NCBI GenBank assembly: GCA_040437565.1
Contig: JBDOQK010000041.1
Location: 186,001-250,000 of the forward strand
Source: Albugo candida
Taxonomy: Eukaryota
DNA: 64,000 nt
Reading direction: 5' to 3'
Below the pieces are notes generated by a model. The model did no database searches. It was not told the DNA's origin and saw only the letters and a program-made list of their open reading frames with translations. Position numbers and translations under genes: made by a program. Of this stretch, positions 1,300 to 36,180 are shown in pieces. How positions within the stretch are numbered: position 1 is the stretch's first letter; every line of letters starts with the position of its first letter.

Positions 1300-2790
1300 A
1301 ACATCATCTGCTTATCGAATTACATTCTTTCATCGAATTTTCAAGGAATCTGTCGATGCATTCTTTCTTTTCCAATCCTATTTGAAAGCCTTCGACGATA
1401 TTTTCACTATCTGAGAATCAAACATCGTAAGGCGTTTATGCGCAGCCTTGAGCTCCATTTCCTCCGTTCCTCCACGTGCTTCATTTCCAAAATAACACCA
1501 GTTATTCAATTCCTATCCTTTGCCTGTTGCTAATGTCCAGCTGAACCCTGAGCTCCATAATTCTCATAACTTAACGTTTCGGAACTCAGTTGTTCCTGTT
1601 GAAAACGTTTCTTCCGCTGATCGTTGACTCCCAAAATCTTCATCTCGTGACGAGCACACTCTGATTGTGCCAGTCGAAGTGACTTCACTTCGAGCTTTTC
1701 CGTTATGGGCCACAATCTTTGCTAGCCGCTGTGAGAGCTTCCAAGTCGGTGGAACGGTTCTTTCCCTTAAAGCTGCTCTCCCAGTTTCTTGATAGCCTCC
1801 ATACGGTCTTTAGCGTTCTCCACTTATTCATCATTGCCTTATGCTTAATATTTTCGACGCTCTCGCCGAGTCGTCGGGTCGATGTGGTACGTGAATTGTC
1901 ATCTGATGATTCTTGCGATATACGCGTCAACTTGGTGGCCAGTAAGGCACAAAACGCGTTTTTTTTTCTCCCTCGCCATCTCAGATCCAGCTAAATTCAC
2001 TAATTGCAGTTAATCCGTATTCACAACTTTTTTATGGGGTCGTGGTGATAGCCAGGGGGCTATATCAACACTTGTGATTCTCGGTTTTGTGAGAAAAATC
2101 TAAGAAGCTAGTAAAAAGAATATAAACCTAGGCTTTAGGATTTTTAATACCAGAATTGGATTCAGCCAAATTCACCAGGTTCAGCTTCCTTGCCTTCTCA
2201 ATTTGTAGGTGAGCGAGGTGATTACATCAAACAGTAGTGGTCCTTAGCGCTGTGTGCAAAATCATCTAGAAATTAGCAATACAGAATTATACCTAGGCTT
2301 TAGCATTGATCATCACCATTTCGGATCGACCCAAATTTACAAGGTTTAGTCTCCTTCTATTAACAACTCGGATTTGTAGGTGTCATTTTACCAACCAGGT
2401 GATTTATCAAACGTTATCGATCCTGTTGAATTGCCTTTTCGAGTTACCAAAAGCTATGCTCGTTTGACAGCAAAAAGAACCGAATAATATTGGGCCTTCG
2501 CGTTCGTGGGCCACGATTTCTAGCTGTAGTAATGCACCTCGGTGACACTCGTATTGTGACATATGGTGGACGCCTTTATCCGCATTGCCGACAACAGGAC
2601 AGGGTGGAATGTATTTGCACTTTTCTATGCATCTGCGTGTACACAACGAACCAAATTAGCCTAACAGCCTCAACAATCGACTTCTCTTTCTTTCAAAAAC
2701 TATGATTCTAGTCTACTGTACGTAAGAACGAGCTGGCTTGCCCGTAATAGTGTTAACGTGGCAACCTGTCAAACAACAATTCTTCTGGTG
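1300..2790 (-). pseudogene. Kinesin pseudogene copy A (diverged motor, neck and repeat tail; switch I/II segment triplicated)
   Basis: Minus-strand translation across frameshifts: YGQASS (P-loop-like, 2729-2746); LNLVNLGRSE (2320-2349), KLNLVNLAES (2158-2187) and LQLVNLAGSE (1980-2009); VPY..TKLTRISQESSDDNSRTT; STRRLGESVENIKHKAMMN; then QSECARHEMKI..NDQ..KRFQQEQL, matching the tail repeat at 15.7-17.0 kb. The part upstream of about 2400 is less certain. Confidence 0.72.
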
Positions 2791-3049
2791 ATGACATGAT
2801 GGTTGCGTCATCACCCCCAGATAATTTTGAGTGATAGCGGTGATGTGAATGTTCACAGCACTGCCTCGTCACAGGAAGTGGTACCATTTCCAAATATTTG
2901 GATATAAAAGTAAAATTTAGACCTTGACCAAACATTTTGAAGTCCCAAGAGCCCTTGCGTAAGGCAACGAAGGCACGGTAACAAACGCAACATCTGGAGA
3001 CTCCCCTGCGTCTGTATGCAACTATCGCATAGAGTGATAGGCCTTGATA

Positions 3050-3640
3050 GCCAAGCCGGAAGCAGCGACACCTTTTGAGATCTTGAAGGCTAGTTTTCCA
3101 TGGACTTGGGACGCTAATTTTTGACCCGTACTTCTAGTTGGAAAATATTTCCCTCACTTCTGCAGGAGCGGGAAATTCAGTACTTGAAAGATCACCAAAG
3201 AATCGATCGATTGCTTAGGTCTTAAGAGTCCGGTGTTGTGATTGTCTACTGATAGTTGCGACGGAGAATGCATATCAACGGCTGGTGTATCAGAATGGAA
3301 CCATCCTGGAGGCACAAAAACCAAGCATACGTTTCATTGTATCGAAAAACTTCCCGACGTTTTTGTCGTGCCCGTTGAAATAAAGGAGATACATCTACTG
3401 TCCCCTTAGCGGCCTAAGATGTCAAGTGGAATACGGCTAAAGAAGCTATTCTGGGCAAGAAAGCCGTGATGTCAAAGTGAAGATTTTGCGTTGGCAATCT
3501 AAAGTTCTTCCTGCAGCTGTTAGGGATGAGAAAAGTATACGAGCGAATGCCATACGGGAAGGCAACGTATTGAATAACATAATACTTTCTGACTGTGTAT
3601 GGAGGCTAAAGTGGCACCCACATGATCAAAATTATAAAAG
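3050..3640 (-). pseudogene. Possible additional, heavily eroded kinesin motor relic
   Basis: Colinear degenerate motifs across frames (YNFDHV ... TAAGRT ... FLPRI ... RYNET ... GKLAF.DL) in roughly kinesin-like order and spacing. Each motif alone is weak. Confidence 0.28.
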
Positions 3641-4372
3641 AGAAGCAGTGGTAGAGCCAATAGTATTTCAAGTTTTGATACAGCTTCAGAATATAGTGGT
3701 GAGTAGAGTTGAGCGAAAGGACTAAAATAAAATTGGAGTTCACCTTCTCACTGAATATCAATCACCAGAATCCCCAACGTGAACTTCTAAAGATCTTCCA
3801 CTCGTTCAGGAAGCCAACATTACACGACGGAGATGAAACCACGCAACTGCTTCGATCTTGAAGAAAGGGTAACCACACGAAGATTTCTGAACATGTGGTT
3901 TGAAGGCACAATATTGAGATTTTCTTGTTCGTGTCATCGGTGATGAGTTCTCTGTGATTCGGCTATGGAGGAGAAGCATCGGCCAATCTGGCACATCACC
4001 TTTCTTGGAAAAAGTCTGAGAAAAACGGATGCCGACGAAACCGGCTACATCAAAGAAGCAAACCGCTTCTATCGTTCGTGATACACAATTGGTCGAAAGA
4101 TCCAAGCGGTCAACAATAGTTTGTGAATTCAATTATCTTAGGATACTCTACTTAATTCCCCAAGTATACACGCTTACGCGGGATTGTACCAGCTCAAACC
4201 TTGCACATCGCCTCAATATGGACGGGGTTGCTGTTGAAACCCATGCTATCAAGTAGTAAAATTTTGGATAGCGGTCAAATCTACTTCCAATCAAAGAAGT
4301 ATCTAGCGCTTGTATCTGTTGGAAGTCGATCGTTTTGTGCCGCCGTTTTGGCTTCCCGAAAGTCCTACGTGA

Positions 4373-4930
4373 TGTAGAGATTAGCGCCGGACGTTATTGA
4401 GTTCGGGAATCTTTTACACTGGGGATAGCGAGAGGAGTGGTCTTTACGAAAATATTAAAAACAAATCGAATCATCTCTTGAGTGCGAAGTGCCTACCTGC
4501 TTACATGTTATGAGCCCAATGCCTGGAACGACGGACAAGAAGCCAACGTTGGCAACATCAGGTAACGCAAGGGTCTCGCCAGCGCGTGGCACCTCCCCAG
4601 CACGCGCCGCCGTAGTCTTTAGTTCGCGAAAGGAGCTCGGCAATCGATGACAAGATCCTCGCGGCCCTCACCTCTCTGTCCAAACGGTGAACAAAAAATG
4701 AGATGATGCTGGGCGCCTTCGAGATCGGAATGTTCGCATTGGCTCTAGGTGCGAACATGTGCTCCAAACCGATAAACATTGACGAGCTTATGGACTGTCC
4801 TGAGCAGAAGCCAGCTGCATGGACACCGCGCACACATGAGGCAGACCTCAAAGAGTCGATGTTTGCCTCATTGGCCCCGCCGCGCGGGCAAACGCCGATG
4901 TTCCAGCGCGTACAAGCTCGAGCTCCGACT
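4373..4930 (+). mobile_element. Ty1/copia LTR-retrotransposon 5' remnant (candidate short LTR, PBS and gag N-terminus)
   Basis: TGTA(4373)...TACA(4505) is followed directly by tGTTATGaGCCCA, resembling the copia-type PBS GGTTATGGGCCCA. The downstream GC-rich broken ORF (KILAALTSLSKR..MLGAFEIGMFALALGANM) resembles oomycete copia gag N-termini (from recall, not searched). Confidence 0.42.
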
Positions 4931-4989
4931 ACCGAGCGCAGCAGAATCGCAAGGAATGGTACTCACCAACGAAGAGGCTCGTGGAACTA

Positions 4990-6146
4990 CTGCCTATGGT
5001 AGTTATCCCGTTGCAGGCTCTGAGTGATTTCGATGTTCACTGGCACCTTCATCAACTCCCTTCAGTACGACCTCCGCTTGCAGGCCACCCAGATGATGCT
5101 TTGCCAGTATTTTTCGAAACATTACGCGAAAATTTCAGCAACCTACCTCGACACCAGAAAGAGGCAGTCTTGGACGATCTGGAAGAGATATCACAGGTAT
5201 TTCTGGGCGATTGTTTTTTTTCGTTTGATATTTTAATGGGTACTAACGCTGTTNNNNNNNNNNNNNNNNNNNNNNNNNNNNNNNNNNNNNNNNNNNNNNN
5301 NNNNNNNNNNNNNNNNNNNNNNNNNNNNNNNNNNNNNNNNNNNNNNNNNNNNNATATCACAGGTATTTCTGGGCGATTGTTTTTTTTCGTTTGATATTTT
5401 AATGGGTACTAACGCTGTTTAAATAAGCAAACACCACAAGTCCTCGAAGATCCGGGGGTTGCTCGAACAGGAGGAAGACCAAGCGGAACGAGCAACAAAA
5501 CCTCGACGCGACGAGACCCTTCTCAATTTGAATACGTGGAGGGGATGCCCCCAGGAAGAGGAAGGCGCCGACGTGCGGTGCTTGTCATCAAATGGGACAA
5601 CGACGTTCATTTGCAGCGTGCCCCGTCAATACACAGAGCCGAAGTCAATATCTCGCAACAGTTGAACGTCATCCCATCGAAGATTCTCAACTGCAACAGC
5701 CTGTTGGTTTCGGTTCCGGGTGGACCGTTGTTTAAAACCGCTGTCGGTGGCCCACTCGCCCACTCTCAGATCAGGTTTAGCATGGCTGGTTGTGAGAGCA
5801 AACGGCCAATAAGAAAAAAGGCTATATATAATCGCTTCTACTGCTATCCTCTTTCCTCCAGAGTCTAATACAGCCACCTTTCCAACATCCTACTCCTTAG
5901 CGTATCTACTATTAACCTACCATATATAGATATCAGAAAAAAACGTACGTACGTTGGCACAATATAAAAAAACAGCGTAAGAAACAGAATGAGCTTGTGT
6001 GTAAAAGTATACAAGTGACCTGATTGGCTGACATACTTAGCAACAATTCAATTTTGTGAGCTGTGATTGGTTAAATCAATTGTCTGTGGCTGTAGTAGTT
6101 TTATCTGTGGCCGTAGTACTAATGTCTGTGGCCATAGCGGCTCCCC
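4990..6146 (+). mobile_element. MULE (Mutator-like) transposase 3' fragment with probable right terminus
   Basis: LSDFDVHWHL, then intron GT5197..AG5427 (spans the gap overlap; CTAAC branch site), then GRPSG..STRRDPSQFEYVE..RR(C)GACHQMG zinc knuckle, homologous to the MULE C-terminus at 36552-36746. Three 21-nt-period TCTGTGGCYRTAG repeats (6083, 6104, 6125) end in CCCC at 6146. Confidence 0.62.
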
Positions 6147-6299
6147 AATCATAATTATCCACAATCGAAAATAATTCCGCTCAAAGTAATCCCTCGGTGA
6201 AATACTGAAAAGAGGTAGAGAAAATAATCTTCTTTAAATCGAGTAGCGCCAGCTTCAGCTGCTCAACAACTGTAACAGAGAAGTGATCATTATTTTATA

Positions 6300-7550: not shown

Positions 7551-7668
7551 CCAGTCTCTCTTGGCAGATATATACACTCTTCTACAGACGATATGGGTTA
7601 TAACTTGGTAATCTATTCTTTCGTTCATAATTTCCCGAAATTCTATGTTCGTGAGTTGCTATTGTTCG

Positions 7669-7785
7669 TAGGACTGCAAATGGAGTTAGATCCACTGGAT
7701 CTGGATCTGAAAAAAAGATCCAGATCAATTCAGCAAATGGACCCAAGTCTCAGATCCAGATCCACTGGATCCATTTGCACCTTCA
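7669..7785. mobile_element. Short hAT-like MITE (117 bp) with GGATCT/AGATCC internal repeats
   Basis: Left TAGGACTGCAAATGGA..GATCCACTGGATCTGGATCTGA is inverted relative to right TCAGATCCAGATCCACTGGATCCATTTGCA. TAGG-initiated TIR. No clean 8-bp TSD. Confidence 0.6.
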
Positions 7786-7899
7786 TTTATTTCAAAAGGT
7801 CAGGAGCAACGAATGTCCAAAATTTTGATTGGATAATACAGCCGCATCTAATACAATAAATATAGCCAATGAAAGAACGCCCCGTGGTGAGTAGACTTT

Positions 7900-10600
7900 T
7901 CCCCAGAGAAACGAAGGTTTATGCGACGTATTCGCTTTCACATTCCTAGCGACTTGACTACATTGAATGGAAGACATATACAACAAATTTCGAAACGGCA
8001 ATTTCTCTAACTGGTCTGCTTCAGTTGACAAAAAGTAACGTCGAAAGTTGTCGTGCCTGTCTGCTTGAGAAACTTGGTGTGGATAGAATCGTGCTGGTAG
8101 AGGTTATAGCAGATACGGTGTTATCTGATTGATGCCTGAACTGAAGTTCGGAAGTACAGATCGTATACAGCGCATGTATCGCAGAACTCCGTACTTGTAT
8201 ATTGCATTTCCCGATACAAATGGAAAGTGCTCTGCAGGAATCATACTACGACGCGGTGAATGAAGACAAAAGCATTATTGCAATTTCACGTAAACAAATA
8301 TGAAATCTTGCTTATCGATGAAATCGGATCAGGTTATTCGTATAAAAACAAATGCAGAAGAAAAAGTATGGTCACGTTACAAGGAATAAGATTAATTTTT
8401 CAGAATTTTTGTCTGATTGATAATTATGGATGGAAAAGTATATCAAAGAGTAGGTAACAAAAAAAGAATCCACCCCTTCCCAGTAAAGTCATGCGCAATG
8501 CTGTCAATAACAAACAGCTTCCTTCAGTGAAAAAGTGCTTGTCACTTTAGAGCTTATCCTATGGAGTTCGTGCATACCCTTTGAGAAGCATGGCATCAGG
8601 AACTCGCACATTATTTGCGTTTCCAGCATTTTACAACAGCAGCACCATACAGAACAACTGCAATGAAGCATTTATAGTGAGATCGAATCGATCTGCACAG
8701 CTGGTTGTGAGAATCTAAATCACATGTCTCCGAACGACAAAAGATATCACGCGATGCTGCACATTGCACAAGACCGACGGCAGCATATATAATTACATAG
8801 CAAGTTCCATGAATCAAATTCATTCAGATATTCGAAGCATGATTTTCATCGGAACATGATATCAAGCTGAGGTATATCATATCGAACCAGGAAGCCAAAA
8901 GTGAATCGAAAGACAACATTCAAACTAATAGGACTTCTTTGCATAAAAGTCGTGGACTTTGAATTTGGAAGAATTCCTAGAACAAGAACAGCGGGCATGT
9001 GCATATCTGACACTATTTCATCCATCGCAGTTTATTTCTGCATTGCATAGCCAATGCGGTGGCTAAAAAGAAGGCGGATTTGCTCATCGCTACTATTTCT
9101 ATGACAGATATGATAATCTTCTTTCACTCCAACCTTTTAGATACGAATTTTTGGAAGAGTGCCAAAACAACAAACAGTTTAGGAAGCAAATTTGCCGTAT
9201 TGACGACCGATTACTCTGCGATAATAACCACACCAAATACAAGACCAATCCGAGATGTACCCAGAATTATCAAAGTTAAAGGATGTGGTTACCCATAAAG
9301 CTGACATTCTTTGTGATGTTGACCCCGACCTAGCCTTCACCGGGTAAAAAGCATTTCAGACACAAACTGCGGGAGTCGTACTTAGTCAACCAATAATGGA
9401 TGGAAACGCAGGCTTTTCTTGTAAAACTACATCCTTACCCTACGATAATTCTGGATACATGTTCGGATTGGTCTTGTATGTGGTGAATAATAGGGCGAAT
9501 TTGCTTCCTAACCCATTGGGTGTTTTTGCATTCTTCCAAGAAATCGTATGATAATATTTTCTCCTTTAGAACAATTTCAAATTTTACCTATAGGTATTAA
9601 AACACTTTCAAAATTTTTTTTACAAGGTTGGAGCCGAAGAAGGTTATCATCTCTGTCCCATAAATTTCTAGTCGACGCAAACAAAAGAATCAAAGTTTTC
9701 TTATCACGTACTTAAACATGGTCGAGGCAAGGAGCACTGCCGAACTGTTGGCCTGCTTCCCAAGATGATCTCTTTAGAGCACGAACAATACTCGATAAAA
9801 TTCAGGACTAGACGAAAAGAAAATGGTTCACGTTTGACAGAGGGAAGATTGGTCTATGGTCTCCTGCACGAGCGGCGCTATATACCCGTGTTAACTTTGA
9901 TGATCGGGTGGTTTTGTTGGTCGCGTTTAAAACTACCAATACAGAAGGTTTCGTGGATTGCATGATGCTTCGCACGGAAGTTTTTTACCTGCACCCTTCT
10001 AAAAAAGTAGTTTTGGATATTTATGGATGACACAAGTTCACGTTAGATTCGTTGATATCTGCATGACAATTAAATCTTGCAGAAATCTATGGTCTCTCGA
10101 GAAGGGGAAGAAGCTTGGTACTCTTGAAGGTTTGCGATTCTGAACTGATGCTAATACTAAGCCATTATTTCACAAATGCAAATTGGATACGCTAATGAAC
10201 AGAATGAAAGTATGATGTTTTTCCTTCATCTCTTATCGTGAATTAAATGGCGGCAAGACTGAGTTTCATTATTACTTCGTGCTCACGAAATTCTCTATAA
10301 ACGGAATGGGTATTTATAAAAACTGCACTACATGAATTCCGCTTTCAATTCCTGCTCTTGTCCTTTTTATCAAAACTTGGGCCAGAAGTGAAATGCTCTG
10401 ATGGTTACTTTATGTCCTTCGATAAAAAGCTAGGCTCCTCTTCTACAATACTTGGTTAGTGACGTGAATTAGCCCATATCATTGTCGCACCTGCCAGGTA
10501 CAGAGAATCCGTATCAAGAAATCGTAAGACTCGTAGAGTAAGCAAAGATATTTTTTGTCCATCCGAGGTCCAAGCACGATGGTCGATTTTTTTACGAGAG
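7900..10600 (+). pseudogene. CCG (CxxCxxxxxG) effector-family pseudogene
   Basis: SCRACLLEKLGVDRIVLV at 8046-8099 fits the Albugo CCG/CHxC consensus CxxCLx4G..L and lies downstream of a frameshifted hydrophobic stretch (LCDVFAFTFLAT). Later plus-strand Cys modules: LHCIANAV (about 9040), VDCMMLR (about 9955), DICMTIKSC, HCRTCQVQR (about 10480). Many stops; the 3' extent is approximate. Confidence 0.55.
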
Positions 10601-10699
10601 TAACAAGGTACCCAGCACCAAGCGAAGCTGTAGGAATGACAATAGACTTGATTTCAATTAGCAATCACTGAATGGATTTTACCGCGGATCTCTGCCCTC

Positions 10700-11470: not shown

Positions 11471-11542
11471 ACTTAATTAATAAAATACTTGGGACTTGGA
11501 GCGCCGTTTGCGCAATGGGGTTGAGATATCAATTGTCGCATG

Positions 11543-11657: not shown

Positions 11658-14277
11658 TAGACCGTATCAATGAATTGTTTTCGACATAAAATAACCATTT
11701 AATACGCAGCGCGGCTCTTAACAGCGAAAACACTGGACTTTAGTGGAGCTAATAGCTAATTTATTCCAGTCAGCGTACAGTCAATCAGTCGGTGGAGCGG
11801 AACGTATGACTCTGAGAAGTGAAATAAAGTACGCAAAAGGCAGACTCCAAAGAAGCTCGGATGGCACGTGTCAGCCCCATAAGAACTGACAGAAGAAGAC
11901 AAGCCGAAGAATTGGGTAACTTTTCCCAGATTATGGATTCATTAAAGCACAATCATCAATGCATCAGGACAAGGAAAGACATGGACACGAGACCGAATCA
12001 GTGCGATCTGGGAAATGGGTTTGAAGACGCAAATAATGTGGTGCAACTGCGGGAACCCCGACAGAGAGAGAGATTCCCGTAACGAGATCTTCTTTTGATT
12101 TGAAGACATTGTCCAAAGATTGGGAGCAAGATACCACGCCGATTTCGACGAAAGTATCAATTATAGTCAGCGCGCCCAGCAGGCATGTCTCCATGGATTC
12201 GTCTTAGAACAGGTTCACACGCAGGTAATGCAACCAATTCTGCATGCTTCGAATTCAGAAGGAAATGAAAGTGAGATGGACAGAATCGGGGAAGATTTGC
12301 AACAATTAGTGTTTTTAGTGAGGAGGGTTCGCTTGAAATATATCCAACGTGCAAAAAGCTCAGCCTACATCATTGTCTCTTCTGTATTTCCGGAGCGTAA
12401 CTTTTCAAATTGTGCTACCAAGAAGATGGAGCGAGATTTATCCCGAGTACATCATCTCATGAACGTGCTCGAGGTAAATATGGTACAAACGTTCTTGTTA
12501 TCAAGACATGAGGTCGAGAACGCGTAATTAGTGATAGATATAATGACTTCACTTGAGTCCGTAGAAAAAACAAAGAAGTATATCAAAAGTCATTATTATC
12601 GAAGAAATATCAGAATTCCGTACATCGGAATCCAAATTGACGACCACCCGCGACCAGATCATTGCGCGGAAAGCAAGAAAAAAACAGGCAACCAGTCTCG
12701 AAAAGATATCGGAAAAATCTACCACTGGAACGAATAGGTAGAAAAAAATAGAAATGTGTAAGATTGACTTAAAACGATCAATCGACCACTAATATTTGGT
12801 CGAGGCTATCGACACCAAACCGAATTATTGTTGCGTACTTTCGGCTAAGACTTACGTAGCTGAGAAGTCTCAACAGTTCATGGCTCTCGTCGAGCTACAA
12901 TTTGACTTCAAGATTCTNNNNNNNNNNNNNNNNNNNNNNNNNNNNNNNNNNNNNNNNNNNNNNNNNNNNNNNNNNNNNNNNNNNNNNNNNNNNNNNNNNN
13001 NNNNNNNNNNNNNNNNNTAGACCGTATCAATGAATTGTTTTCGACATAAAATAACCATTTAATACGCAGCGCGGCTCTTAACAGCGAAAACACTGGACTT
13101 TAGTGGAGCTAATAGCTAATTTATTCCAGTCAGCGTACAGTCAATCAGTCGGTGGAGCGGAACGTATGACTCTGAGAAGTGAAATAAAGTACGCAAAAGG
13201 CAGACTCCAAAGAAGCTCGGATGGCACGTGTCAGCCCCATAAGAACTGACAGAAGAAGACAAGCCGAAGAATTGGGTAACTTTTCCCAGATTATGGATTC
13301 ATTAAAGCACAATCATCAATGCATCAGGACAAGGAAAGACATGGACACGAGACCGAATCAGTGCGATCTGGGAAATGGGTTTGAAGACGCAAATAATGTG
13401 GTGCAACTGCGGGAACCCCGACAGAGAGAGAGATTCCCGTAACGAGATCTTCTTTTGATTTGAAGACATTGTCCAAAGATTGGGAGCAAGATACCACGCC
13501 GATTTCGACGAAAGTATCAATTATAGTCAGCGCGCCCAGCAGGCATGTCTCCATGGATTCGTCTTAGAACAGGTTCACACGCAGGTAATGCAACCAATTC
13601 TGCATGCTTCGAATTCAGAAGGAAATGAAAGTGAGATGGACAGAATCGGGGAAGATTTGCAACAATTAGTGTTTTTAGTGAGGAGGGTTCGCTTGAAATA
13701 TATCCAACGTGCAAAAAGCTCAGCCTACATCATTGTCTCTTCTGTATTTCCGGAGCGTAACTTTTCAAATTGTGCTACCAAGAAGATGGAGCGAGATTTA
13801 TCCCGAGTACATCATCTCATGAACGTGCTCGAGGTAAATATGGTACAAACGTTCTTGTTATCAAGACATGAGGTCGAGAACGCGTAATTAGTGATAGATA
13901 TAATGACTTCACTTGAGTCCGTAGAAAAAACAAAGAAGTATATCAAAAGTCATTATTATCGAAGAAATATCAGAATTCCGTACATCGGAATCCAAATTGA
14001 CGACCACCCGCGACCAGATCATTGCGCGGAAAGCAAGAAAAAAACAGGCAACCAGTCTCGAAAAGATATCGGAAAAATCTACCACTGGAACGAATAGGTA
14101 GAAAAAAATAGAAATGTGTAAGATTGACTTAAAACGATCAATCGACCACTAATATTTGGTCGAGGCTATCGACACCAAACCGAATTATTGTTGCGTACTT
14201 TCGGCTAAGACTTACGTAGCTGAGAAGTCTCAACAGTTCATGGCTCTCGTCGAGCTACAATTTGACTTCAAGATTCT
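11658..14277. repeat. Exact 1260-bp direct duplication across a 100-N gap (11658-12917 = 13018-14277); probable assembly overlap
   Basis: Identical sequence at offset 1360, ending and starting exactly at the gap edges. ORF tracks are duplicated. Confidence 0.9.
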
Positions 14278-15724: not shown

Positions 15725-17050
15725 TTCTCCCAAGTTCAATTATTCTTGTTGATTGTTTCCTTCCAGCTGACCATGGAGCTTTATGATCTTTATCTCCTAT
15801 CCTTGACACTTCAGTTGGTCTTGTTGAAAAAACTGCTCGTGTGATGCTTAAGTCTTTGGTATTCCAGAGTCTCGTTCACAAAATTTTTAGTATATAAGAT
15901 TCCTGTCACCTCCCTTCCAGATAATAATTTAGCTCTTTGATCTTTACCTTCTTAAACATCACACTCCAATTGTTCCGGTCGAAAATTTTCTTTCAGCTGA
16001 TGATTGGACTCTTTGTTCGTGCTTAATATTCCAATTGTTCTTGTCGTGACAAATCTTGTCGTTCAAACATCAATGACTCTTGCTGAGTAAATCTATCCTA
16101 GGTGATGATTGAATTCTTTGATCTTCATCTCTATTTCTTCACACTTCTATGCTGCTATTGTTACCTATCCTGTCCTTGAAATTTTTATTGTTGATACTTT
16201 TTTTACCGCCTGATCATTTATGGTTGATCTTCATCTCTTGTCTTTCAAACTTCAATTGTTCTTGTTGATACTTCTCTTACAGCTTGTTCTTGGGATCATC
16301 TATCTTGCCTTGTGTCGCTCACACTTAGACTGTTTCTATTGAGACTGTAATTCCTGCTAATGATCGAAATCCTTGATCTTCGTCTCTCGTCCTGAATATT
16401 CCAATTGTTCTTGTTGTGACAAATCCTTTCGTTCACGTTTCAATGACTTTTTTTTTAAAGATCTATCCCAGGTAATTGTTAATCTCTTCGATATTCCTCT
16501 CTTGTCATTCACATTTGGTTGTTGCTGTTGTGTCACATCTTGTCGCTCACACTTAAACTGTTCTTGTTGAGATTATCCTTTCGCCTAATCATTGATGGTT
16601 GATCTTCATCTCATGTGGTTCACACTTTCATTGTTCTTGTTGAAACTTCTCTCCAGCTGCTTATAGAGCTGTTTGATCATGCCTTGTATCTTTAACACTT
16701 CAAAGTTCTTGTTGGGACTTTTATTCTACCTCATCACTAATGGCTGATCTTCAAATCCTCTCGTTCTTACTTCTTATTAAGCTATACGAAATTTTCTGAT
16801 GTCGTTCGCAATTCAATAGTTCTTGTCGAGGATTTTCTTTCTGATGATGATGCAACTCTTAGATATATGATGTTGGTCCTTGTTCTACACATTCCAAGTG
16901 TTCTTTTCGTGACAAATCTTGTCGTTCAGCCTTCACTTTTTCCTGTTGATAAAGTATGTCCCAGATGATGATTGAGCTCTATGATCTTCATCTAGAAACA
17001 AACAGACTTCGATTGTGCTGTCGCATCTTTTCTTCGCGCTCTTCCATTAT
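15725..17050 (-). pseudogene. Repeat coiled-coil tail of the kinesin family (about 72-nt/24-aa degenerate tandem repeat); probable 3' part of copy B
   Basis: Recurring caacaagaacaattgaagtgtgaacgacaagagatgaagatcaaagagctcaatcatcagctg (QQEQLKCERQEMKIKELNHQL). It begins MEEREEKMRQ, matching the neck-to-tail junction in copies A (EVKSLRLAQSECARHEMKI) and C (LEEKVR). Confidence 0.7.
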
Positions 17051-17599: not shown

Positions 17600-19860
17600 T
17601 AGTGAACTTTTTTCAAGTCGATACGTCAAAACGGACGATAGCATATTGACGCCGCTGAGATTTTCGATAGCAGTTCCTTATCTCGGTCCCACTGACCGAA
17701 TTCAATGCTTTTGGCCCCATGTCCTTTAGTCCAGTCCAAGAATAATTGCATGTTTTCGTGCGTACCGCTTGGCAGAGTCCCAAAAGTTCTCAATGAAGTT
17801 AAGTTCACCATAAATTTTTGGATAAAATATTATCATGCGGCCGGCACCAACCATAAGCTCTTATTACATACATTTCTGGCGAAGAAAGTCTAGATGATTT
17901 GTCATGATTTTTCTGGCACAGTTGTCCAGTTCGGTTGGAGGACATGTAATGCGACAGTCAAGTGTAGCCGGCACGCCAAAGTCCTCGTTCTTCAAGAACA
18001 AGTTTGATACCTTTTGCCTTGCCACGAATTTTTCAATTACATGATCTCCTGGAACAATCAATTCCTGATAAATTCCATTTCCCCAAGTCGTTTGTCGCAT
18101 CAGATGTTGTTTTCCACCAAATCCCAGGTTCATGCGGTTTGCACAGAGAGCATCATCCGCAAAGGCAGCATGGCTGGTGGCATTGTCAAACTCAATGAAG
18201 GCCTGCATGCCTTAAAATTGTGCCTCAAAGATGGGGATTGCTCGATCAAGCAGAGGTCCATTGCCTCCCACCATCCGTCGTGCTGCATTCCAGGGTGCAT
18301 TATCACACAAGGTTGTTCTGGCAGCGTCGGGAAGGGCTTTTTTCTCTTGGTCCAGGGCGAAGCGTCCCGAAATTGGACAAAGGAAGTCATTGACATGAAT
18401 GGATCTCCCTTGGCCTTTCTGGCGCAATGGTTGTTCTCCATCCGGTATCCAAAGGCGCTTCAACCCATCATTGGCAGCAAACTTACTTTCATCATGGGTC
18501 ACCAGAACAAGTGGTTGAATATTCGCTACTGGCCATATTACATCATCTTGGTTATTCTCGAAATTATGATCTTTTGCAGGGAAAACAGACATGCGAACAT
18601 CTAGTTCATCTAATCTGGCCAGAAACTTTTGGCGATACTCAATAACATCATCTCTTTCATGACCATCGATGTAAATCCCCTTGGCAACTACGCGGTAGGA
18701 TATTTCTAAGGACTGTAGCCAGCGTATCATCGTTCGTTCCGATACTTTGGGCAAGGATCGTATTCTAACTCGGGGAGGATTTCTTCATTCGTGCGTTTTG
18801 TCAAGGTTGCAATTTCGACATCGAACTTATTTGCCTGGAGGTATTACTGTAGGGTAACGATACAGTCCTCGTCTTGAAGGAAACTAGATCGCTTGGCGTG
18901 TTTCACTTGCTTCGACTGAGGCAGAGACCCGTCTTTCATAAACGCTCCAGCCCATGTCCGTATTGTTCTAGAGAAGTAAGCCCTCTTACTGGGATAAAGG
19001 AACTTGCCGCTTTCTTCGTTTTCCTTGAATTGAGTAGTCGAAAGTACCCGAGTAGCGCTGCTTCACGCGCATGTGCTGCATGGTCCTTCCGTTTGGCTTT
19101 CGATTTAGGTTTTGAGATTATCAAGTGCCAAACTGATATCAGATTTGGTCCACCTAGTACCCTCGTCTTTATCGGATTCATCATCCAAGTCTGCATCATT
19201 TGCGTTACCCACATCCACTTCTTCTGTAAACGTTGGTTGCAGAGTCCAGTATTTTGTCAACGGCTTGGTGCCTCTCGCAGCATCATTTAGCACCGCCTTC
19301 TTGCGTCTTTGTGTGCGTGACGAATTTCCCAGATACCGCAGTGGTCGGTTGCTCTCGTTCGCCAGCACTGGAAGGACAGCTCTCTCCATATTCTCAACGA
19401 TCATGTCATCACCTTCCACTTCATTTTCGTTCTCCATCTGGGATTCATTTTCACTGCAGGCGCTGCTACTTTTTAATTCATGCACACCACCATGGACTTC
19501 AATTTTCTGCTTCTTGTTCTCTGCAGCATGTATTGATGCCATACACAAGTGTTTCCTTTCTTTTTGGAACGTGGCATTACTACTTTGGGGAGCTATAAGT
19601 GCACAAAAAATACGAAGGGCGTTATGAGCTTCTGCAGTGATATCCACGAACCTTGTCCATAGAGCACATACTATTTTATGGATCCTCCAATTGTGCTTTA
19701 CGAAACCCCTAAAGATCATGGCGATTGATTAACCTACCTACATATCTGATTGGATAACAGAACCGGGTATTGGCACGTTAGAATTATAGGCTGCATGAAA
19801 TTGAATTTTTGAAATTTGGCCGCATAAATCGGGGGTGTCGGTTATAAGTGTCTTACACTA
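17600..19860 (-). mobile_element. IS630/Tc1/mariner-superfamily transposase pseudogene with a long catalytic spacer (about DD131E)
   Basis: SKQ.KHAKRSSFL.DED, GIYIDGHERDDVIEYRQKFL, LVTHDESKF, KGQGRSIHVNDFL, EFDNATSH (D at 18185-18187), KGIKLVLEERGLW, FYPKIYGELNFIENFW (E at 17789-17791). Several stops and frameshifts. The right end ...GTCGGTTATAAGTGTCTTACACTA-TA resembles an ITm terminus; the left end is not resolved. Confidence 0.85.
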
Positions 19861-19864
19861 TACT

Positions 19865-21144
19865 TCTTTCTTCGCCGTTTCCTAATACTTTGGCACATTG
19901 GTGGAATGTGGAATACGTTTTCTCTATTTCTAGCTGTTCTTCCATTTTCCTATCGATCCCCCTAATATCATTAAAGCTCCCTCGCTACTTTACCCTCCTT
20001 GTTTTTGGTCTTCTTAATGTGCTTGCTGATTCGCAAGGTCGACAAGTTTTCCGCTAAATCCAACTCGCTGCACTCAATGTTGATCAGTATTGTGGTGAAC
20101 GTACTTCCAATCAGCGATTCGTGCACTATGCGCGTCATCTTGTTATCGCGGTAAGGCATGTCAGCTGGTATTCGGATGCGTCAGACTGTTGGTCACCCAC
20201 CGTACCCAGACTTGACAGCTATTATTTTATCATCTTCGCCTCCTCTAGTCGCTTTCCGCTCGCCTCGGTACCATCCCAGACCCTGCTTTAATTGGGATGT
20301 GTGGCTGTGACAATGTAATCACAAGCACGCTGTGGCTCCGTGACCTGCGCATATTCATCGCCGTGGAAGTGATGGAGCACTATTCGATAGCATGACGCAC
20401 ATACTTCATGAATCCTGCGAGGTTTGATACACATACCTCTCGCATACTTTCCACACACACGCATCCCCGATATCTGTAGCTTCCATGCTCCTTGTGTGTC
20501 CAGAAGATCCCGCACTTGCTTCATGTAGATTTCGATGAAACTCACCGTTAACACAAATTCCACGTTTGCATCAGCAGGTCCATCACCCTCACCAATGCGG
20601 TCAAAGATTTCCGCAGCTGTCCTTAGGATGATGTCGTCTTTTTCGGCCCGTTTTTCTTCGCCGTCTTCCATCGTATACGCTTTTACGGACGATGTCTGTC
20701 GATAGGCGAGAAATGGTTGCATTGTACCCTTCCATAATATCTACGAAAACATCAGTCAGATACAGAGCACAAATGGCTATTGGACGACTAAACCATACCG
20801 TCGACAGCCGGACGGGCAGCCGCATTCAATACCGTCAGCTGATCATCTTTTGTCGGTAAAGACATATTTGTAATGAAATTCACAACAACAAAAAATTCCT
20901 ATGAAAACGAAACAATAGGAGACACATGAACGAATTCATGGTTAAAAACGACGAGTAAATTGTTTACCGCTGTTTTGAACGCACTTGGGTCTATTGTGGC
21001 TGCTACTATATGCATTTACAGGTCTTAGTCGGCAGACCATAGCAAACGTTGCTTCTTTTTTTGCTATTTACTTGCATAGCGATAACGGCAGAATAACCTG
21101 ATTCAAAGCATTTATAAACAAACCTTTGAGTTCACCATGGGCAT
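19865..21144 (-). pseudogene. Kinesin pseudogene copy B (motor and neck, intron-containing)
   Basis: DIMEGYNAT..AYRQTSSVKAYTME (eroded P-loop), VSFIEIYMKQVRDLL, RSHSVL, AGSG (LYLVDL deleted), LEEAKMIK, MPYRDNKMTRIVHESL, AENLSTLR. Colinear with copy C, including the 5' region. Confidence 0.9.
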
Positions 21145-21216
21145 TGTTGTCGATGGTTATTGTGTTTGCATAAAGTATTGATACATCTTCACTAAGGGCC
21201 GGTGTAGATGCTATTA

Positions 21217-21227
21217 ATTGGAAATGA
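21217..21227 (-). promoter_or_regulatory. Candidate oomycete initiator (INR-like TCATTTCCAAT) upstream of kinesin copy B
   Basis: The same motif is conserved about 75-85 nt upstream of the ATG in copy C (34664-34674). Confidence 0.4.
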
Positions 21228-21559
21228 CACCGAGTCACTTATCTCCAAATTAAACCGTAATAGCAGCATACCGGAATAGAAATGCTGTTACTATATAAAG
21301 TCAATAAGAGCATGATCAGAGGGGCTGCTTGTTTTTAGATGGAATCAACATATTGACGCACCTCCCGTCCAATCACCTCATGCATTCTCTTTCTTTCTTT
21401 CGTTCACATTAAATCAACGAGCTGTTGAAGTGCGGAATGGGAATTTTCGCCCGATATCTTCTTCTTGTCTGGAAATCCCGACACGTTTCTTTTTAAAATT
21501 CTAGGGTTATTTATCTATCTTTCTATCTATCTTTCCATCTATCAAAACTTTATGGTTTT

Positions 21560-27300: not shown

Positions 27301-30300
27301 CGTAAAGGCTCTTTGGCTGTTATAAGCGCTAATGATCCTGACATGCTGGCTACCATCAAATGAGCTGCTTTACGCATTTTCACGTCGTCACATTCCGTCG
27401 CAAAATCTTTCAAAATGATTTCTCTCGTTGTGATACACGCAATCGTCACACTCCGTTCGACAACGGGCGATATAACCTCACGAATAGCTCGATCGACTGC
27501 CAGAGGGAGTAATCGCTTCAAATTGACATTTGACAGAGGAAGATCGGGATTCACTGCCACATACGAGGCAAGATTTGGAATAACAGTTGACTCAGACACC
27601 GTTGAATTGTGTGGTGATGCAAATGCGCCATTCGCGGTGTCTCGATTTGCAGCTGGGCTTGCTCCATCCAGCTTGCTTGATTTCACTATTTTCGAAGGAG
27701 TTGTGGAGCCTGTAAGTGCTTGTTTGTGCACCAGCTTTTGGCTCGGTGTTGGTGTCACGGATCGAAGTGATTTACTCGTTTTTACGTTAAAATCCGGATT
27801 TCCAGGTCGAGGTGGCGTCAGACGAGAATCAAGCAATCCAGCTTTGCATTGTTCCTCTACACTCAGTCTAAACGATTTGAACAGCACTTCGATTTCAAAT
27901 TTCAAATTTAGCTTCAGATCCGGGACGTCGTAGATTTCACGCATGGCATGTATCAATCCCATTATCCATGGATTCGGAGGCTTGAAAATCTTGGATTTTT
28001 TACATCCTTCCAAGACCTTGGCAACAAATGGAGCGACCGCAATCAAATGACCCGTTTCATATCCGACATAAAGCAGCTCCTTGAGATCCAATTCACGCTG
28101 GAGAAGCGGTTTATTACGTGAAAGCGTAAATAGTCCAAGCCATAAACCTAAATTCTTGAGCAGGGATCTTTGTTGAGAATTTGTCGTAATGGATGCCGAA
28201 GTGATGAGTTTGCGAGCGTTTATCAAAGTGCGTCTCATTATTTCTTTCTCGAGTTCCGGCTGCATCAATTTCTCAATGAATATTAGATACACAGTGTGAT
28301 AGTTTGGTTGTGTCGAAATACGTTTGATGACAAGGTAATTGGCCATCCAAGGGTAAAAGTTCTCTATCAATATCTTTCGCATTTCGGGAATTTTCGCTTC
28401 CAAGTTCGAAATCGACATGTTGTTGACGATAAAGTGAATTCTGTCTTTGATTCCTTCGTCAGGTTGGGCCAATACTTCACTTTCGTCACTAACACTTTCT
28501 TCGTTGAAAATGTGATTTACTATCATTGGAGGTAACTGAGGTGAAGCCGGTGATGCGATGAGTTTGGGTGAGACACTAGGTTGTGATACGATGACTTGCG
28601 ATCTGACTTCGACGGTTTCTTCTCGACTAGACTGAGTCGCGTTGGATGGTGTGGCGATCTTGACGGTCGTCACTGTTGTCGTCGTCACGGTCTCCATTTG
28701 TCGAACGACTTTGGAAGTTTCCTCGGAACTCACATCACCTGGTGAACGTTCACTTGCATCTCCTTCCGATCTGATGCCAACAGAGCGGACCACATGACGC
28801 ATGATTTCTGGTAGTGCATGCACGAGATGAGGGATCTGCGATAGATTGGTGCAGTAGGCCGGGAGCTCACGAAGTCTTGGAACAAATTGCTGCAATGCAC
28901 ACNNNNNNNNNNNNNNNNNNNNNNNNNNNNNNNNNNNNNNNNNNNNNNNNNNNNNNNNNNNNNNNNNNNNNNNNNNNNNNNNNNNNNNNNNNNNNNNNNN
29001 NNTCCTCGGAACTCACATCACCTGGTGAACGTTCACTTGCATCTCCTTCCGATCTGATGCCAACAGAGCGGACCACATGACGCATGATTTCTGGTAGTGC
29101 ATGCACGAGATGAGGGATCTGCGATAGATTGGTGCAGTAGGCCGGGAGCTCACGAAGTCTTGGAACAAATTGCTGCAATGCACACGCTCCAAAGAAAAAG
29201 TATTTGGAGTTGACTGGCTCGCGTAAACTCTCCAGGACAGAACGCAATGCTGTTTGTAAAAAGTTGGAAGGAAGTACCTGATGCTCAATCAGCTTTCCGA
29301 AAAGAACGCCAGTAATTCTCAGCTCCATCTCAGGGTATCGAGGGAAAAATCGATACTCATCGAAGAGGTTGTGTATCATACAAAAAAAGATTTGGCGTTC
29401 GCGTTCGTCGCGTGAGGTCTGAAATCTCTTCAGCATAGCAACTACATCATTAATATTCTGCTCAGATGTATAAATCTGCTGGAAATACGCATTTGCCTGC
29501 TCCTCAATCATCTCGGGAGTGACATTGGCTTCCATCGAGGCTGTTTCAGTAGCTTCTTTGATAGTGTCTGCGCGAGGTTTAGTTCCTGCGGCGATAATAG
29601 GATGTACTTCAATCGATAAGGTGATGACACGTTTCAGTTCTTGTGCGATTGGCGGTGGAAGTATCGACTGAACACCAACAATAAGCTTGAGAATGGCCGT
29701 CAGCGCTTCGATCGACATCAAATGACTCGTCGACGGTGTGATACTCTTCTTCGGGACAGCACGGGTGTAATTGCGGTGTACAAACGCAAGACACGATGTC
29801 ACAAAAGGAACGCGTTGACTTGTCAGACGCTCTGTCATCCATGTTTCAATGTTCAATACATCGTGATTGGATCCAACGATGGCGAGAGCCAAAGCAAAAG
29901 TATAGTAATTCGAATGAATTGCATGAGAAAACGCATCTTCGGTGGTTCGATACAGTGTGAATAACCTTGAAATAATCTGCGCTGAAGTTGTGGCGTAATA
30001 ACATTTCACGCTCGCGTGCAAAATAAAGTTCGGAACCACAGACCATAAATGACGCATTATCAGTGGAGCGTTCGGACGGCCCATGATGTAAATTCCAAGT
30101 AATTCAGAAAAAATGTCGTCACGAAGATTGCTTGATTTTATTTTTGACTCGGCTAAATTTGCAATAAGTACGTCCGGACACATTTTCATGGGGCCATCAA
30201 AGATATGACGAACTTTTCCATAGCAATCCTTCTCCGAGATACTCAATAAGGTATCGACCAAATCCAACGAAAACCAGGCTCCGTTCTTAGGGACAGCAGC

Positions 30301-31719: not shown

Positions 31720-31979
31720 TTGCAGCCCTTCTCTTTGTATTTCGTATCGCTATGATTTTTATAATCGCTCTCTCTCAATTTAGCAATGTGTAGAAGCGCC
31801 TTAAACTCGCACCGAAAGCGATTCGAGGGGCTCGGAGAATTTCAAAACGAAAAGTACCGAAGGTCTTCAATTAGGTACCCTGCTCATTTGTTACGTAACT
31901 GGTCTGTAATCGGTTACACATAACTACCTGCTTGTCAAGCGGTTCTCATCTCATCCTGACGCAAGCCCACATCATCTCA
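31720..31979. promoter_or_regulatory. Probable bidirectional promoter shared by NOT1 and PDK1 (260 bp between start codons)
   Basis: Head-to-head start codons at 31719 (-) and 31980 (+). Confidence 0.5.
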
Positions 31980-34256
31980 ATGACACGAGACATGGAGCCG
32001 AAACCCGTAATCCCGATCGATTCATATGAGAACAAAAAGTTGAGATCTTTATCTGAAGTGACGTCTTCATTTTCTGTGGAGACTCCGCCGAGCCCAAGAG
32101 ACTTTCTCTTCGGGTCTGAATTAGGCCAAGGTTCCTATGCAAAGGTAGCGTTTTGAGGCATTCTAAATCGTAGAGACCAACGTTTTTGTGAATTCGAAGG
32201 TGTATCATGCAAAGCTAAAGAATAAATCAGCGTTGGATTTTGCGGTCAAAGTAATGGATCAGAATTTCATCCGACGCGAAAATAAGACCGCATTCGTGTT
32301 AACGGAACGGAAAGTGATGACACGCCTTCGTCATCCATTCATTGTTCGATTCTACTGCAGTTTTCGGGTATGAAACCGCAATTGCTAAGACAAAGAACCT
32401 TATATGCTCGCTATAGGATTCTCAAAGCTTGTATCTTGTTATGGAATTATGTCTTGGTGGAAATTTGCTCTCATTTATTCGGTAGGGATATAGATTGGAT
32501 TTCTTTCTGAAGAGTTCTGAAGAAGGAAGCACAATAGGGAGAAACTCAGGGAAAATGAAGATAAAGGTATTCAGGATTCAGCCTGTTGTCTGGAGTCGAC
32601 TCGCTTCTATATGGCGGAACTCGTGATCGCGATCGAATATCTACATTCCAAGGTAAGAAAGCATTGTGGAAGAACACAATACGTGACATTCGCTGTAGAA
32701 AGTTGTCCATCGAGATTTGAAACCCGATAATCTGCTCTTCAGGTAGGGAAATTTGAAAGTATCGGATCCTGAGTCCACCTCACAAGTTGTTTGTGAGCAG
32801 CGATAAAGGCCATCTCAAGGTCATTGATTTTGGATCTGCTAAGGTATGCACAATGTGGAGATTCAAACTGGTCATTATGAAGATAACGATTGCTCTCAAG
32901 GATGAAGAAGACCGATCTACGACATCTGGGAGCTTCTGTGGTACTGTATCATACGTGTCCCCGGAAGTACTCAAAGATAAACCAGCAACCGTGGCAACGG
33001 ATTTATGGGCTGCGGGATGTATCATGTATGAGGTGAACTCTCATCAAAGTATATCACTCCAGTCCTTACTCACTATGAGGACAGATGCTTACTGGTAGGC
33101 CAGCATTCATTGCAGAAACTGCATACGGCACATTTCAGAAAGTAAATAGCTATAAAATCTACGCTCATGATGCTAATCAGCTCACTGGGTGCAGATTTGT
33201 GATCACGGAGGAGCAGAAAATGACATGTTTTTCCCAGAGTCGATTCCATCAGCGGCGAGAGACCTCATTGAAAAACTTCTACAACCGGTACGCATTTAAA
33301 GCTTCAAGTATATGGAGATTTTTAGCTTTACATTTACTGTCAGGAACCCAACACTCGCATTGGTGCAGGCGAAGACTCATCGACTAGCTTTACAGCGCTC
33401 AAGGTACATGTACCACAAAATTGCTCTCTATGTACTTACACGTCAATGTGCTGGAGTGAAGACACATATGTTTTTCGATGGAATCGAATGGAGGAGTTTA
33501 CCATCACAAAAGCCTCCGAGGACTTCAATCGCTACGATAACATTACCGGAGCCGCACCTTGTAAGCCTACAGCCTCATTATTCGGCCAAATGAACTCACT
33601 CGGCGTATCAGGATGGAGCTAATGAGCATTGGGCAGTCGCGGACTATTTTTCGGATTGCGGTATTTCAGAAAGCACTTGCTCCGAGTTTGGCGGGTACGG
33701 ATGTTTTTATTTGCGGAATGTATAACTCGCTGAAAGAAATATTCATAGAAACGCGCGATCAAAGAGCAGTTATTCTTGGCATATGCCTTGCAAGGCACTT
33801 GGTGTGTTGCCTCCTGGAGAGCAAGTAGTCAAAAGATCGCTGGTTAAGATCCACAAGCGATTATTCAAACGTTCTCGCCAGGTTCCTTTATCTTTTGGTA
33901 CTGACATTATGCACTATAACTTGAGTGTTATCCGATAGATGGTGCTGACAGATCGACCACGACTCATACTGTTTAGCAGTGGATCCGGCGAGTTGAAAGA
34001 AGATTTTTTGCTGACGGCATCATTGCATGTCAAGACCTTGAGTAGAGATACGTTCGAGATTCGATGTGTACGTCTTCGATCTGCCATCCGGATTGACTGT
34101 TTCAACTCATTGTTTGGCGTTTAGTCGGCACAGGCAATACGATCGATACGTGTAACAGATATATCCGGAAGCGCTGAGGAATGGGCACAAGCTATATTGG
34201 ATATAGTCCAACATCGGTTGGGTGGATTAGGTGGCGGTTTGATGCAGCAACATTGA
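31980..34256 (+). CDS. PDK1: 3-phosphoinositide-dependent protein kinase 1-like (AGC kinase plus C-terminal PH domain), many short introns
   Basis: [74 protein letters not shown], and a PDK1-type PH segment [18 protein letters not shown]. Stop TGA at 34254-34256. Confidence 0.9.
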
Positions 34257-34398
34257 AAGCTTCAGCATCGCCTTTGTACTATAGAACTTTGTATCACATT
34301 TCACAAAAATAAAGACCTTTCTATTCCGATATCCTATCACCACGGTTGACCTCGGAAATAAGATACTCATATAGCTATTTGACTATCTTATATTATGG

Positions 34399-34580
34399 TT
34401 TGTCAAGGATTTCATNNNNNNNNNNNNNNNNNNNNNNNNNNNNNNNNNNNNNNNNNNNNNNNNNNNNNNNNNNNNNNNNNNNNNNNNNNNNNNNNNNNNN
34501 NNNNNNNNNNNNNNNTACCTTCCTTATCCTATCATGAGTCCCTGACCGTGTGAATATCACTTAAGTCTGACTTCAAACCT
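34399..34580 (-). mobile_element. SINE copy 1 (5'-truncated) with 17-bp TSD
   Basis: Reverse complement of the 3' part of SINE copy 2, with one visible mismatch. Flanked by ACTATCTTATATTATGG at 34382-34398 and 34581-34597. Confidence 0.85.
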
Positions 34581-34747
34581 ACTATCTTATATTATGGAGC
34601 ATAGGGATTGCACACCTCCAGCAGGGGGCCGTGGAAAACGCGTGTGATTAGAAACGACTTGGTTCATTTCCAATCAAAAGCATCTGCACCGGCTTCTTGG
34701 TGGAGCTGTACAATCATTTTATGAAACAACAACAACTATCGACTACA

Positions 34748-36020
34748 ATGACGATGGTGAACTCAAAGGTATGTTTATGACAGATTTGAACATGATTATG
34801 ACGTTCTTTATGTACATAGCAAGAATAGGAAAGCAACTTTCGCGTATGCTGCCGCCTAAGACCTGTGGACCCACAGAAAAACAGCGAAAACGGATGTAAG
34901 TGCGTTCAAAGCAGCGACAACGCAGAATCCTACAAGGTACTCTTCGTATTTCACTAGAATTCGTGTATATATCTCACATTGTTTCGTTTTTTAGGAAAAA
35001 ACAGTTCTCAAGAATTGCAGTACGATCGTGTCTTTACCGAATATGACACATCAACTGACGCTATTTAATGCGGCTGCCCGTCCGGCTGTCGACGGTATGG
35101 TGTAGTCGTCCACTAGTCATTTGTGCTGTGTATCTGACGGATGTTTTTGTAGATGTTATGGAAGGATACAATGCAACTAGATGCAAGGCGGCGAAGAAAA
35201 CCGACTCGAACAAGACGGCATCATCCCAAGGACAGCTGCGGAAATCTTCGACCGCATTAGTGAGGTTGATGGACCTGCTGATGCAAACATGGAGTTTGTA
35301 TTTGAAGTGAGTTACATCGAAATTTACATGGAGCAAGTGCGGGATCTGCTGGACACGCAAGGAGTACGGAAGCTCCAGATCCGGGAGGATAATCGGGGAG
35401 GCCTGTATTTGGAAAATTCGCGATAGGTATGTGTTACGAGCCTCGCAGGATTCATGCAGTATGTGCGTCAGGCTATGGAAAAGCGGTCTGTCGCGTCCAC
35501 GGCGATGAATATGCGCAGCTCACGGAGCCACAGCGTGGTTGGGGTGACAATGTCAAAGCGACACGTCCCAACACAAGTGGTGAAGACTGGAAAGCTATAT
35601 TTGGTGGATTTGGCAGGGTCTGAGATCTAAGGAAGACCGAGACCAGCGGAAAGCGACTGGAGGAGGCGAAGATGATCAACAAATCGTTGTCAAGTCTCGG
35701 TATGGTCATTGCTGGTTGGAAATGCGCTCACCACATTGATGATCAGCATTCGTGCAGCGCGTTGGATTAAGCGGAGACTTTGTCGAAGTTGCGATTCGGT
35801 GAGCGTATCAAAAAGATCAAGAATACGGCAATGGTGAGCAGGCGGGAGAACAACAAAGACCTTATGGATACAATCAAAGAACTGGAAAGACTTTTGATAA
35901 TGTAAAAGAAGCGTTCAAGCGACTTAGATTAGAAAGTGGATAGCAGTATAAGCGCTCATGAAAAATTGAGCAACAGGCTGAAGATTCTCGAAGAGAAGGT
36001 GCGATAGGCAGTATCGGAGA
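34748..36020 (+). pseudogene. Kinesin pseudogene copy C (motor and neck, two 5' introns)
   Basis: RVCCRLRP after intron 1, DVMEGYNAT (P-loop deleted), DGIIPRTAAEIF, VSYIEIYMEQVRDLL, TAMNMRSSRSHSV, KLYLVDLAGSE, LEEAKMINKSLSSLG, AETLSKLRFGERIKKIKN. Stops and deletions throughout. Confidence 0.92.
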
Positions 36021-36029
36021 GCGATCGCC

Positions 36030-36180
36030 AGTCTGTTGCTCAATTCCTTATTGGTCGCTGTACAGCTTTCCACTTTCTTTTCCAAGACGCTCGAACGCTT
36101 CTTTTCCATTTTTAAAGCAGTTGTTTGACGGTATCCATAAGCTCATTGACGTTTTCATGGTGTGTGCTGCTCAGACCGAT
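36030..36180 (-). pseudogene. Kinesin neck fragment copy D, inverted against copy C
   Basis: ELMDTVKQL..MEKKRSSVLEKKVESCTATNKELSNRL aligns with copy C DLMDTIKELERLLIM.KKRSSDLD.KVDSSISAHEKLSNRL. Confidence 0.7.

Follow-up and report, generated by a model that had tools for sequence, protein, structure and literature searches.

The window analysed here is a stretch of 64,000 nucleotides from the white-rust oomycete Albugo candida (contig JBDOQK010000041.1, positions 186,001 to 250,000 of the forward strand), with a G+C content of ~42%, and it contains four relics of a kinesin-1 gene that are referred to below as copies A, B, C and D. A window-wide search was performed using a hidden Markov model (HMM) built from database kinesin-1 sequences and run on 2989 six-frame pieces, and kinesin pieces were found only at A, B and C. 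An earlier note on this DNA had counted at least four independently decayed relics. We see that A, B and C are indeed partial pseudogenes with different lesions, but that D is only a small inverted fragment of C.

Copy B (19960-21236, minus strand) is a kinesin-1 pseudogene that extends from the 5′ leader to the neck linker. Three pieces of it match the Pfam family PF00225 (E 9.8e-14, 2.8e-9 and 4.3e-4), and the best score, 51.5 bits against a gathering score of 29.3, places it in the kinesin motor superfamily. The P-loop is eroded to RQTSSVKA, the LYLVDL stretch is deleted and the DL of DLAGSE is gone, and there are frameshifts and stops in addition. The Pfam matches and the alignment thereby bear out the kinesin copy with an eroded P-loop and without LYLVDL that had been placed at 19.9-21.1 kb on the minus strand, its extent now being slightly larger. 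The longest open frame of B (20291-20740, minus strand, 150 codons) is essentially the same as P0002, an A. candida ‘hypothetical protein’ of 155 aa (ABG067_005471), and is near-identical also to P0001, a protein predicted from a public read assembly (Logan).

Copy C (34656-35985, plus strand) is likewise a kinesin-1 pseudogene, and runs from the 5′ leader through the neck coil. Again three pieces match PF00225 (E 4.4e-15, 1.5e-16 with 60.8 bits, and 2.3e-5), and the locus is matched by the intact A. candida paralogue P0152 with a tblastn E of 6.9e-64, while an 81-residue frame of C is 99% identical to P0003. Gaps in the comparison with B show that the P-loop has been deleted (41 nt), as has the segment from PYRD to GGN (79 nt), which agrees with the description of a copy at 34.7-36.0 kb (plus strand) lacking both. 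Several frameshifts and stops are carried as well, including stops at 35424 and 35768. A putative start ATG is found at 34748, followed by a putative 60-nt GT..AG intron at 34769-34828, as inferred from the sequence. No stalk or tail is recognisable in either B or C using tblastn and a stalk/tail HMM.

Copy D (36024-36156, minus strand) is an inverted partial duplicate of the neck coil of C, and in alignment it encodes a neck coil resembling that of C. Together with C 35846-35985 it forms an imperfect palindrome centred near 36004, the arms of which are 75% complementary between 35893-35985 and 36024-36116 and 79% complementary between 35846-35884 and 36118-36156; for the palindrome region, blastn gives 70% over 322 nt. 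The kinesin neck that had been reported at 36.0-36.2 kb on the minus strand is real, and is the second arm of this palindrome.

Copy A (1719-2420, minus strand) is a heavily eroded, 5′-truncated kinesin-1 relic. Its segment 1719-1873 aligns with C 35792-35945 at 73% over 149 nt with a score of 108, while the highest score among 46 control segments from the window was 42. The piece 1706-1990 is found by the custom kinesin-1 HMM with an E of 0.0013, and A is matched by a Saprolegnia kinesin-1 in tblastn (E 5.6e-4). Pfam gave no match at E <= 0.05 on 20 pieces of A. The HMM and a repeat alignment resolve three diverged repeats of the switch II region, spaced ~170 bp apart (~1945-2075, ~2120-2250 and ~2290-2420), after which comes a segment running from α5/α6 to the neck at 1719-1936; Tandem Repeats Finder reported nothing relevant in A. 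The INKSL block is absent by tblastn. Of the copy previously drawn at 1.3-2.8 kb on the minus strand, the homology and the missing INKSL block stand, but the extent shrinks to that given above and the signal is weaker.

Directly abutting A, inside the span earlier claimed as kinesin, lies a relic of the 3′ end of the neighbouring 2-oxoglutarate dehydrogenase gene (2428-2619, plus strand), which blastn aligns with 796-990 at 71.8% over 195 nt (E 3.5e-19). The parent gene is identified by Pfam PF16870 with an E of 9.5e-43. The presence of this relic beside A suggests that the stretch is a patchwork of local fragments, brought about by patchwork repair or by duplication.

A tail for copy B had been proposed at 15.7-17.0 kb, and this we could not substantiate: tblastn with three A. 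candida paralogues gave no minus-strand match there (E <= 20), and the best E obtained with the stalk/tail HMM was 1.1. The candidate was rejected; a QQEQL-FERQ-like peptide encoded on the minus strand bears no more than a faint resemblance to the kinesin-1 stalk motif. The interval 15959-16993 comprises diverged direct repeats (71-73% identity, units of ~170-320 nt) in which this peptide recurs on the minus strand, and Tandem Repeats Finder, applied to 15-17.6 kb, returned nothing relevant and did not detect them. A weak kinesin-like match at 18023-18172 (tblastn E 0.26) lies on the opposite strand in a transposase-like region that is described below, and was treated as chance.

The nearest intact relatives of these relics are three annotated A. 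candida proteins, each on a different contig. All catalytic motifs are present in P0152 (ABG067_006128, 741 aa). P0007 (ABG067_006478, partial) shares 92% identity with P0152 and has Arg in place of a P-loop Gly and PVRD in place of PYRD, and P0248 (530 aa) is 71-76% identical to both. To judge from these sequences, live relatives apparently remain on other contigs, with P0152 retaining every motif and the P-loop of P0007 already broken. Identities of family members to P0152 of 92%, 71-76% and 51-61% point to different ages. P0007 and B show the same Gly to Arg change at the first P-loop glycine despite belonging to different sub-lineages, which may be a coincidence or a recurrent route to motor inactivation.

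The subfamily is consistently kinesin-1. The best 26 Protein Data Bank (PDB) matches of P0152 are all kinesin-1 heavy chains, at 280-314 bits, with the next family, KIF3B, at 236, and the best PDB match of C is the kinesin heavy chain 1goj. In maximum-likelihood trees of the motor and neck, in which no members of kinesin-2 to -14 were included, P0152, P0007, P0248, B and C form one clade with a support of 100, and within it B and C are sisters, also with a support of 100. This Albugo clade attaches among oomycetes, separated from all other kinesin-1 by a branch of 0.59-0.76, and the Logan-derived protein P0016 is the sister of the whole A. candida group. The earlier suggestion that one kinesin lineage has been copied repeatedly is therefore upheld, as A-D fall in a single kinesin-1 sub-lineage that forms a clade with the three paralogues, and the copies are not spread over different conserved kinesin subfamilies. 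When the P0152 motor was compared with proteins of < 407 aa, no close Albugo fragment appeared in the best 120 of 7731 and the top match was P0016 at 57%, a result that is uninformative on short relic frames.

In the order of the motor and in its motifs (P-loop, SSRSH, DLAGSE, neck linker), the Albugo family is the same as kinesin-1, also known from KIF5 and the oomycete kinesin heavy chains; the stalk and tail of P0152 resemble those of other stramenopile kinesin-1, and the best database matches, like those in PDB, are all kinesin-1. It differs in being multi-copy, in the truncated pseudogenes of the window and in its divergence. Among the kinesin-1 motors of other oomycetes, pairwise identity is 74-85%, whereas the Albugo sequences reach only 43-57% with them, and other oomycete species have one or two kinesin-1 entries each among the matches listed. 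The Albugo kinesin-1 clade is thus lineage-specific, fast-evolving and multi-copy.

The history of the window copies is most clearly seen by comparing B with C, which are 81% identical over 1140 aligned nt (C 34656-35867 vs B 21236-19960). The homology begins abruptly, 92 nt upstream of the putative ATG, at C 34656 and B 21236, and a DNA comparison finds nothing in common between the flanks of the two copies. In both, the 60-nt GT..AG segment follows after 7 codons, and when it is taken out, the frame continues into the first motor strand. Because the leader and this putative intron have been kept, B and C are likely copies made at the DNA level and not by retroposition. Processed (retro-)pseudogenes were ruled out on these grounds, namely the retained 60-nt segment and the 92 nt upstream of the ATG.

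The two copies have decayed at different rates. With P0152 as outgroup, there are 30 unique amino-acid changes in B and 8 in C (χ2 12.7). We also scored the 102 columns that are identical across 23 non-Albugo kinesin-1 sequences, and these invariant positions are changed at 31/85 in B, 9/66 in C and 9/98 in P0152; by this measure the retained parts of C are as conserved as the intact P0152, and no worse. The dN/dS between B and C is 0.55 (bootstrap 0.33-0.95), with a dS of 0.29 over 183 codons. The unequal rates, the dN/dS below 1 and the invariant columns together indicate that selection acted on C, but not on B, during much of the period after they split, and C probably stayed functional long after the two had separated. 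As a functional kinesin would have an uninterrupted frame and intact motifs, whereas A consists of fragments only and B and C have lost motifs and gained stops and frameshifts, the four relics are predicted to have no motor function now.

Overall, these data are probably best explained if A-D are remnants of kinesin-1 paralogues of the A. candida lineage, left by local birth and death through DNA duplication and rearrangement that did not involve a transposon. We infer the following order of events. A kinesin-1 paralogue lineage would have arisen and multiplied within the Albugo candida lineage, with a working paralogue probably situated at the C locus, and pieces of that locus would then have been copied at the DNA level into nearby intergenic sites. 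The piece that became B would have spanned the leader through the neck and decayed early. The piece that became A would have run from switch II through the neck, and would later have been triplicated internally, while D would have received the neck only, in inverted orientation, giving rise to the palindrome at the truncated 3′ end of C. Copy C itself would have been selected for much longer before the P-loop, the PYRD segment, the stalk and the tail were lost, and the palindrome at its 3′ end may mark the rearrangement that removed the stalk and tail.

Gene families that evolve by birth and death and leave local clusters of pseudogenes share several properties with this system: repeated duplication, mixed ages, independent lesions, and relics existing alongside live paralogues. 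The window copies differ from such families in being partial, in lying in both orientations and not in tandem, in being split by conserved single-copy genes and, in one case, in being palindromic.

Several observations weigh against local birth and death. The upper bound of the dN/dS estimate, at 0.95, is near neutrality, and the 60-nt intron is a prediction from the DNA sequence. Motor-only partial copies in both orientations, set among single-copy housekeeping genes, are not the product of simple tandem duplication; partial, scattered copies of this kind can result when DNA elements capture gene fragments. The sharp 5′ boundary of the B/C homology, and a transposase-like frame on the same strand 1.2 kb downstream of B, fall on the same side. 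These features, together with at least three more paralogues on other contigs and the separate intergenic sites occupied by the copies between conserved genes, would favour an alternative in which an unrecognised DNA transposon (Pack-MULE-, Helitron- or Tc1/IS630-like) carried the motor fragment as cargo and scattered it locally and perhaps genome-wide. The earlier note had named cargo of a DNA element among its options, and we consider it unlikely.

The transposase-like frame (17867-18784, minus strand) has 306 codons with one in-frame TAA and is weakly similar to IS630/Tc1-type (DDE_3) transposases. It is matched by NCBIfam NF033545 with an E of 9.2e-5, although at 22 bits against a cut-off of 100, and by Pfam DDE_3 with an E of 0.13 on the first piece and not at all on the read-through. 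No second copy of the frame was found in the window, nor any counterpart beside A or C, and as a single copy in the window the relic seems to have inserted independently. A further frame upstream, 207 codons long and of unknown family, probably belongs with it to a single decayed DNA transposon adjacent to B (17867-19728, minus strand).

Other signs of mobility were sought in the window. No transposon domains were found by Pfam in 98 frames of >= 95 aa across the window, or in 134 further frames of 60-94 aa at 3.4-24.2 kb and 31.3-47 kb. Neither inverted nor direct terminal repeats were seen to bracket A, B or C, nor were hairpins or target-site duplications found, although at 73-81% identity short termini or target-site duplications could have been eroded, so that their absence says little. 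The window thus resembles Pack-MULE or Helitron capture in its partial fragments, in both orientations, with a putative intron kept; it differs in the lack of terminal repeats, hairpins, target-site duplications and common flanks, in having one weak transposase relic, and in the varying extents of the fragments. Those extents (leader to neck in B, switch II to neck in A, neck only in D) are not what a single captured fragment would give. Furthermore, the very different rates of B and C and the dN/dS below 1 argue that C was a working, selected gene and not a dead passenger, and the paralogues on other contigs are full-length and belong to another sub-lineage.

Nor did the copies prove to behave like an interspersed repeat, as had been supposed. 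Copies of the B/C type are known in protein databases only from this 36-kb stretch and have unrelated flanks; as such databases hold open frames only, and one was clustered at 50% identity, the tracing of all B/C-type frames to this locus is weak evidence. A metagenome scan with P0152 returned nine loci, all at 40% identity and unrelated.

A broader reading is that in Albugo candida, and perhaps in Albuginales given the sister position of P0016, kinesin-1 has turned into a rapidly evolving, duplicating family, driven by conflict or by unrecognised copying at the DNA level. On this reading ATPase motifs would be lost while long frames stay, as with the common Gly to Arg change of P0007 and B, and A, B and D would be products of active fragment copying and not of passive decay. 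We regard this as quite improbable.

Genetic conflict has a known precedent among kinesins. Kindr, on maize Ab10, consists of kinesin-14 genes arrayed in tandem on a drive haplotype, with copies that are intact and expressed. The Albugo family could by analogy be maintained as a selfish or meiotic-drive motor, or by an arms race with the host, with the relics as discarded members; this we hold to be very unlikely. An amplified kinesin gene is common to both systems, but the window copies are dispersed, not in tandem, dead and of kinesin-1 type, so that a drive array is not supported, and no link was seen to a knob-like repeat or a sexual stage. Conflict would fit the strong acceleration of the whole Albugo clade over other oomycete kinesin-1, the repeated and recent duplication (shown by the near identity of P0007 and P0152) and the change in intact P0152 of 9 of 98 otherwise invariant positions. 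It would also fit a sentence in McMullan et al. 2015 (PMC4384639), where the 59 genes for kinesin-like proteins rank second in size among the gene tribes of A. candida AcNc2. Acceleration may, however, stem just as well from relaxed constraint.

The poor assembly of the window (nine gaps of 100 N, with direct duplications of 153-3837 nt, 100% identical, on either side of six) might suggest that the copies arose as assembly artefacts or represent allelic haplotigs of a single gene. This idea is refuted by the divergence between copies: A-D have distinct lesions and show 19-30% difference at the DNA level, far above the ~1% divergence among A. candida races quoted in the abstract of McMullan et al. 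2015 (PMC4384639), and the B and C frames recur in independent sources.

The gap-flanking duplications themselves (11658-14277, 28720-29185, 41213-42196, 45482-45887, 48685-56458 and 61339-62176) look like scaffolding artefacts. In the largest, one gene of IQCH-like ATP-grasp type and one with a PH domain are present twice, which would inflate the number of genes counted.

Turning to the gene context, Pfam identifies the housekeeping genes Med20, CNOT1 and a protein kinase between the kinesin copies. The kinase, in the interval between CNOT1 and copy C (32167-33095, plus strand), is found as pieces in separate frames (Pfam E 1.4e-6 and 1.3e-13), and could be an intron-containing gene or another pseudogene. 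A search of the window with the housekeeping frames (tblastn, E <= 1e-3) gave no more relics; its sensitivity was low, as the dehydrogenase relic visible to blastn was missed too. Frames of the secreted CCG/CHXC effector type were not found in a crude scan of the window, which is a weak test. The kinesin copies had been said to occur only in blocks rich in transposable elements and effectors, a picture that is not supported by these housekeeping genes, by the scan for effectors or by the single IS630-like relic amid frames free of Pfam transposon domains.

Two further features were seen in the window. In the G+C-richer stretch at 40-42 kb there is a marginal match to Phage_integrase, a tyrosine recombinase family (40253-40456, plus strand, E 0.0086), which may be the relic of a Crypton- or DIRS-like element or be due to chance. 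Between A and B, in a block of low G+C without domains, an inverted repeat of ~150 nt is found at 9141-9290 and 9425-9549, with 69% identity.

In short, no new mobile element or drive system is revealed on present evidence, and local birth and death of kinesin-1 paralogues is ordinary as a process, though the gene in which it occurred is somewhat unexpected. Apart from the sentence in PMC4384639 cited above, a full-text search of the literature, covering articles without their supplements, did not return a description of kinesin-1 expansion or of kinesin pseudogenes in Albugo or other oomycetes. There are consequences for annotation, as at least one relic, copy B, is annotated as protein-coding, and fragments like it probably inflate the reported 59-gene ‘kinesin-like’ tribe. 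That Albugo has a rapidly evolving kinesin-1 clade of several copies, accompanied by pseudogenes, is a genuine if modest peculiarity of its cell biology, and could be connected with obligate biotrophy or with a relaxation of constraint on the transport of organelles.

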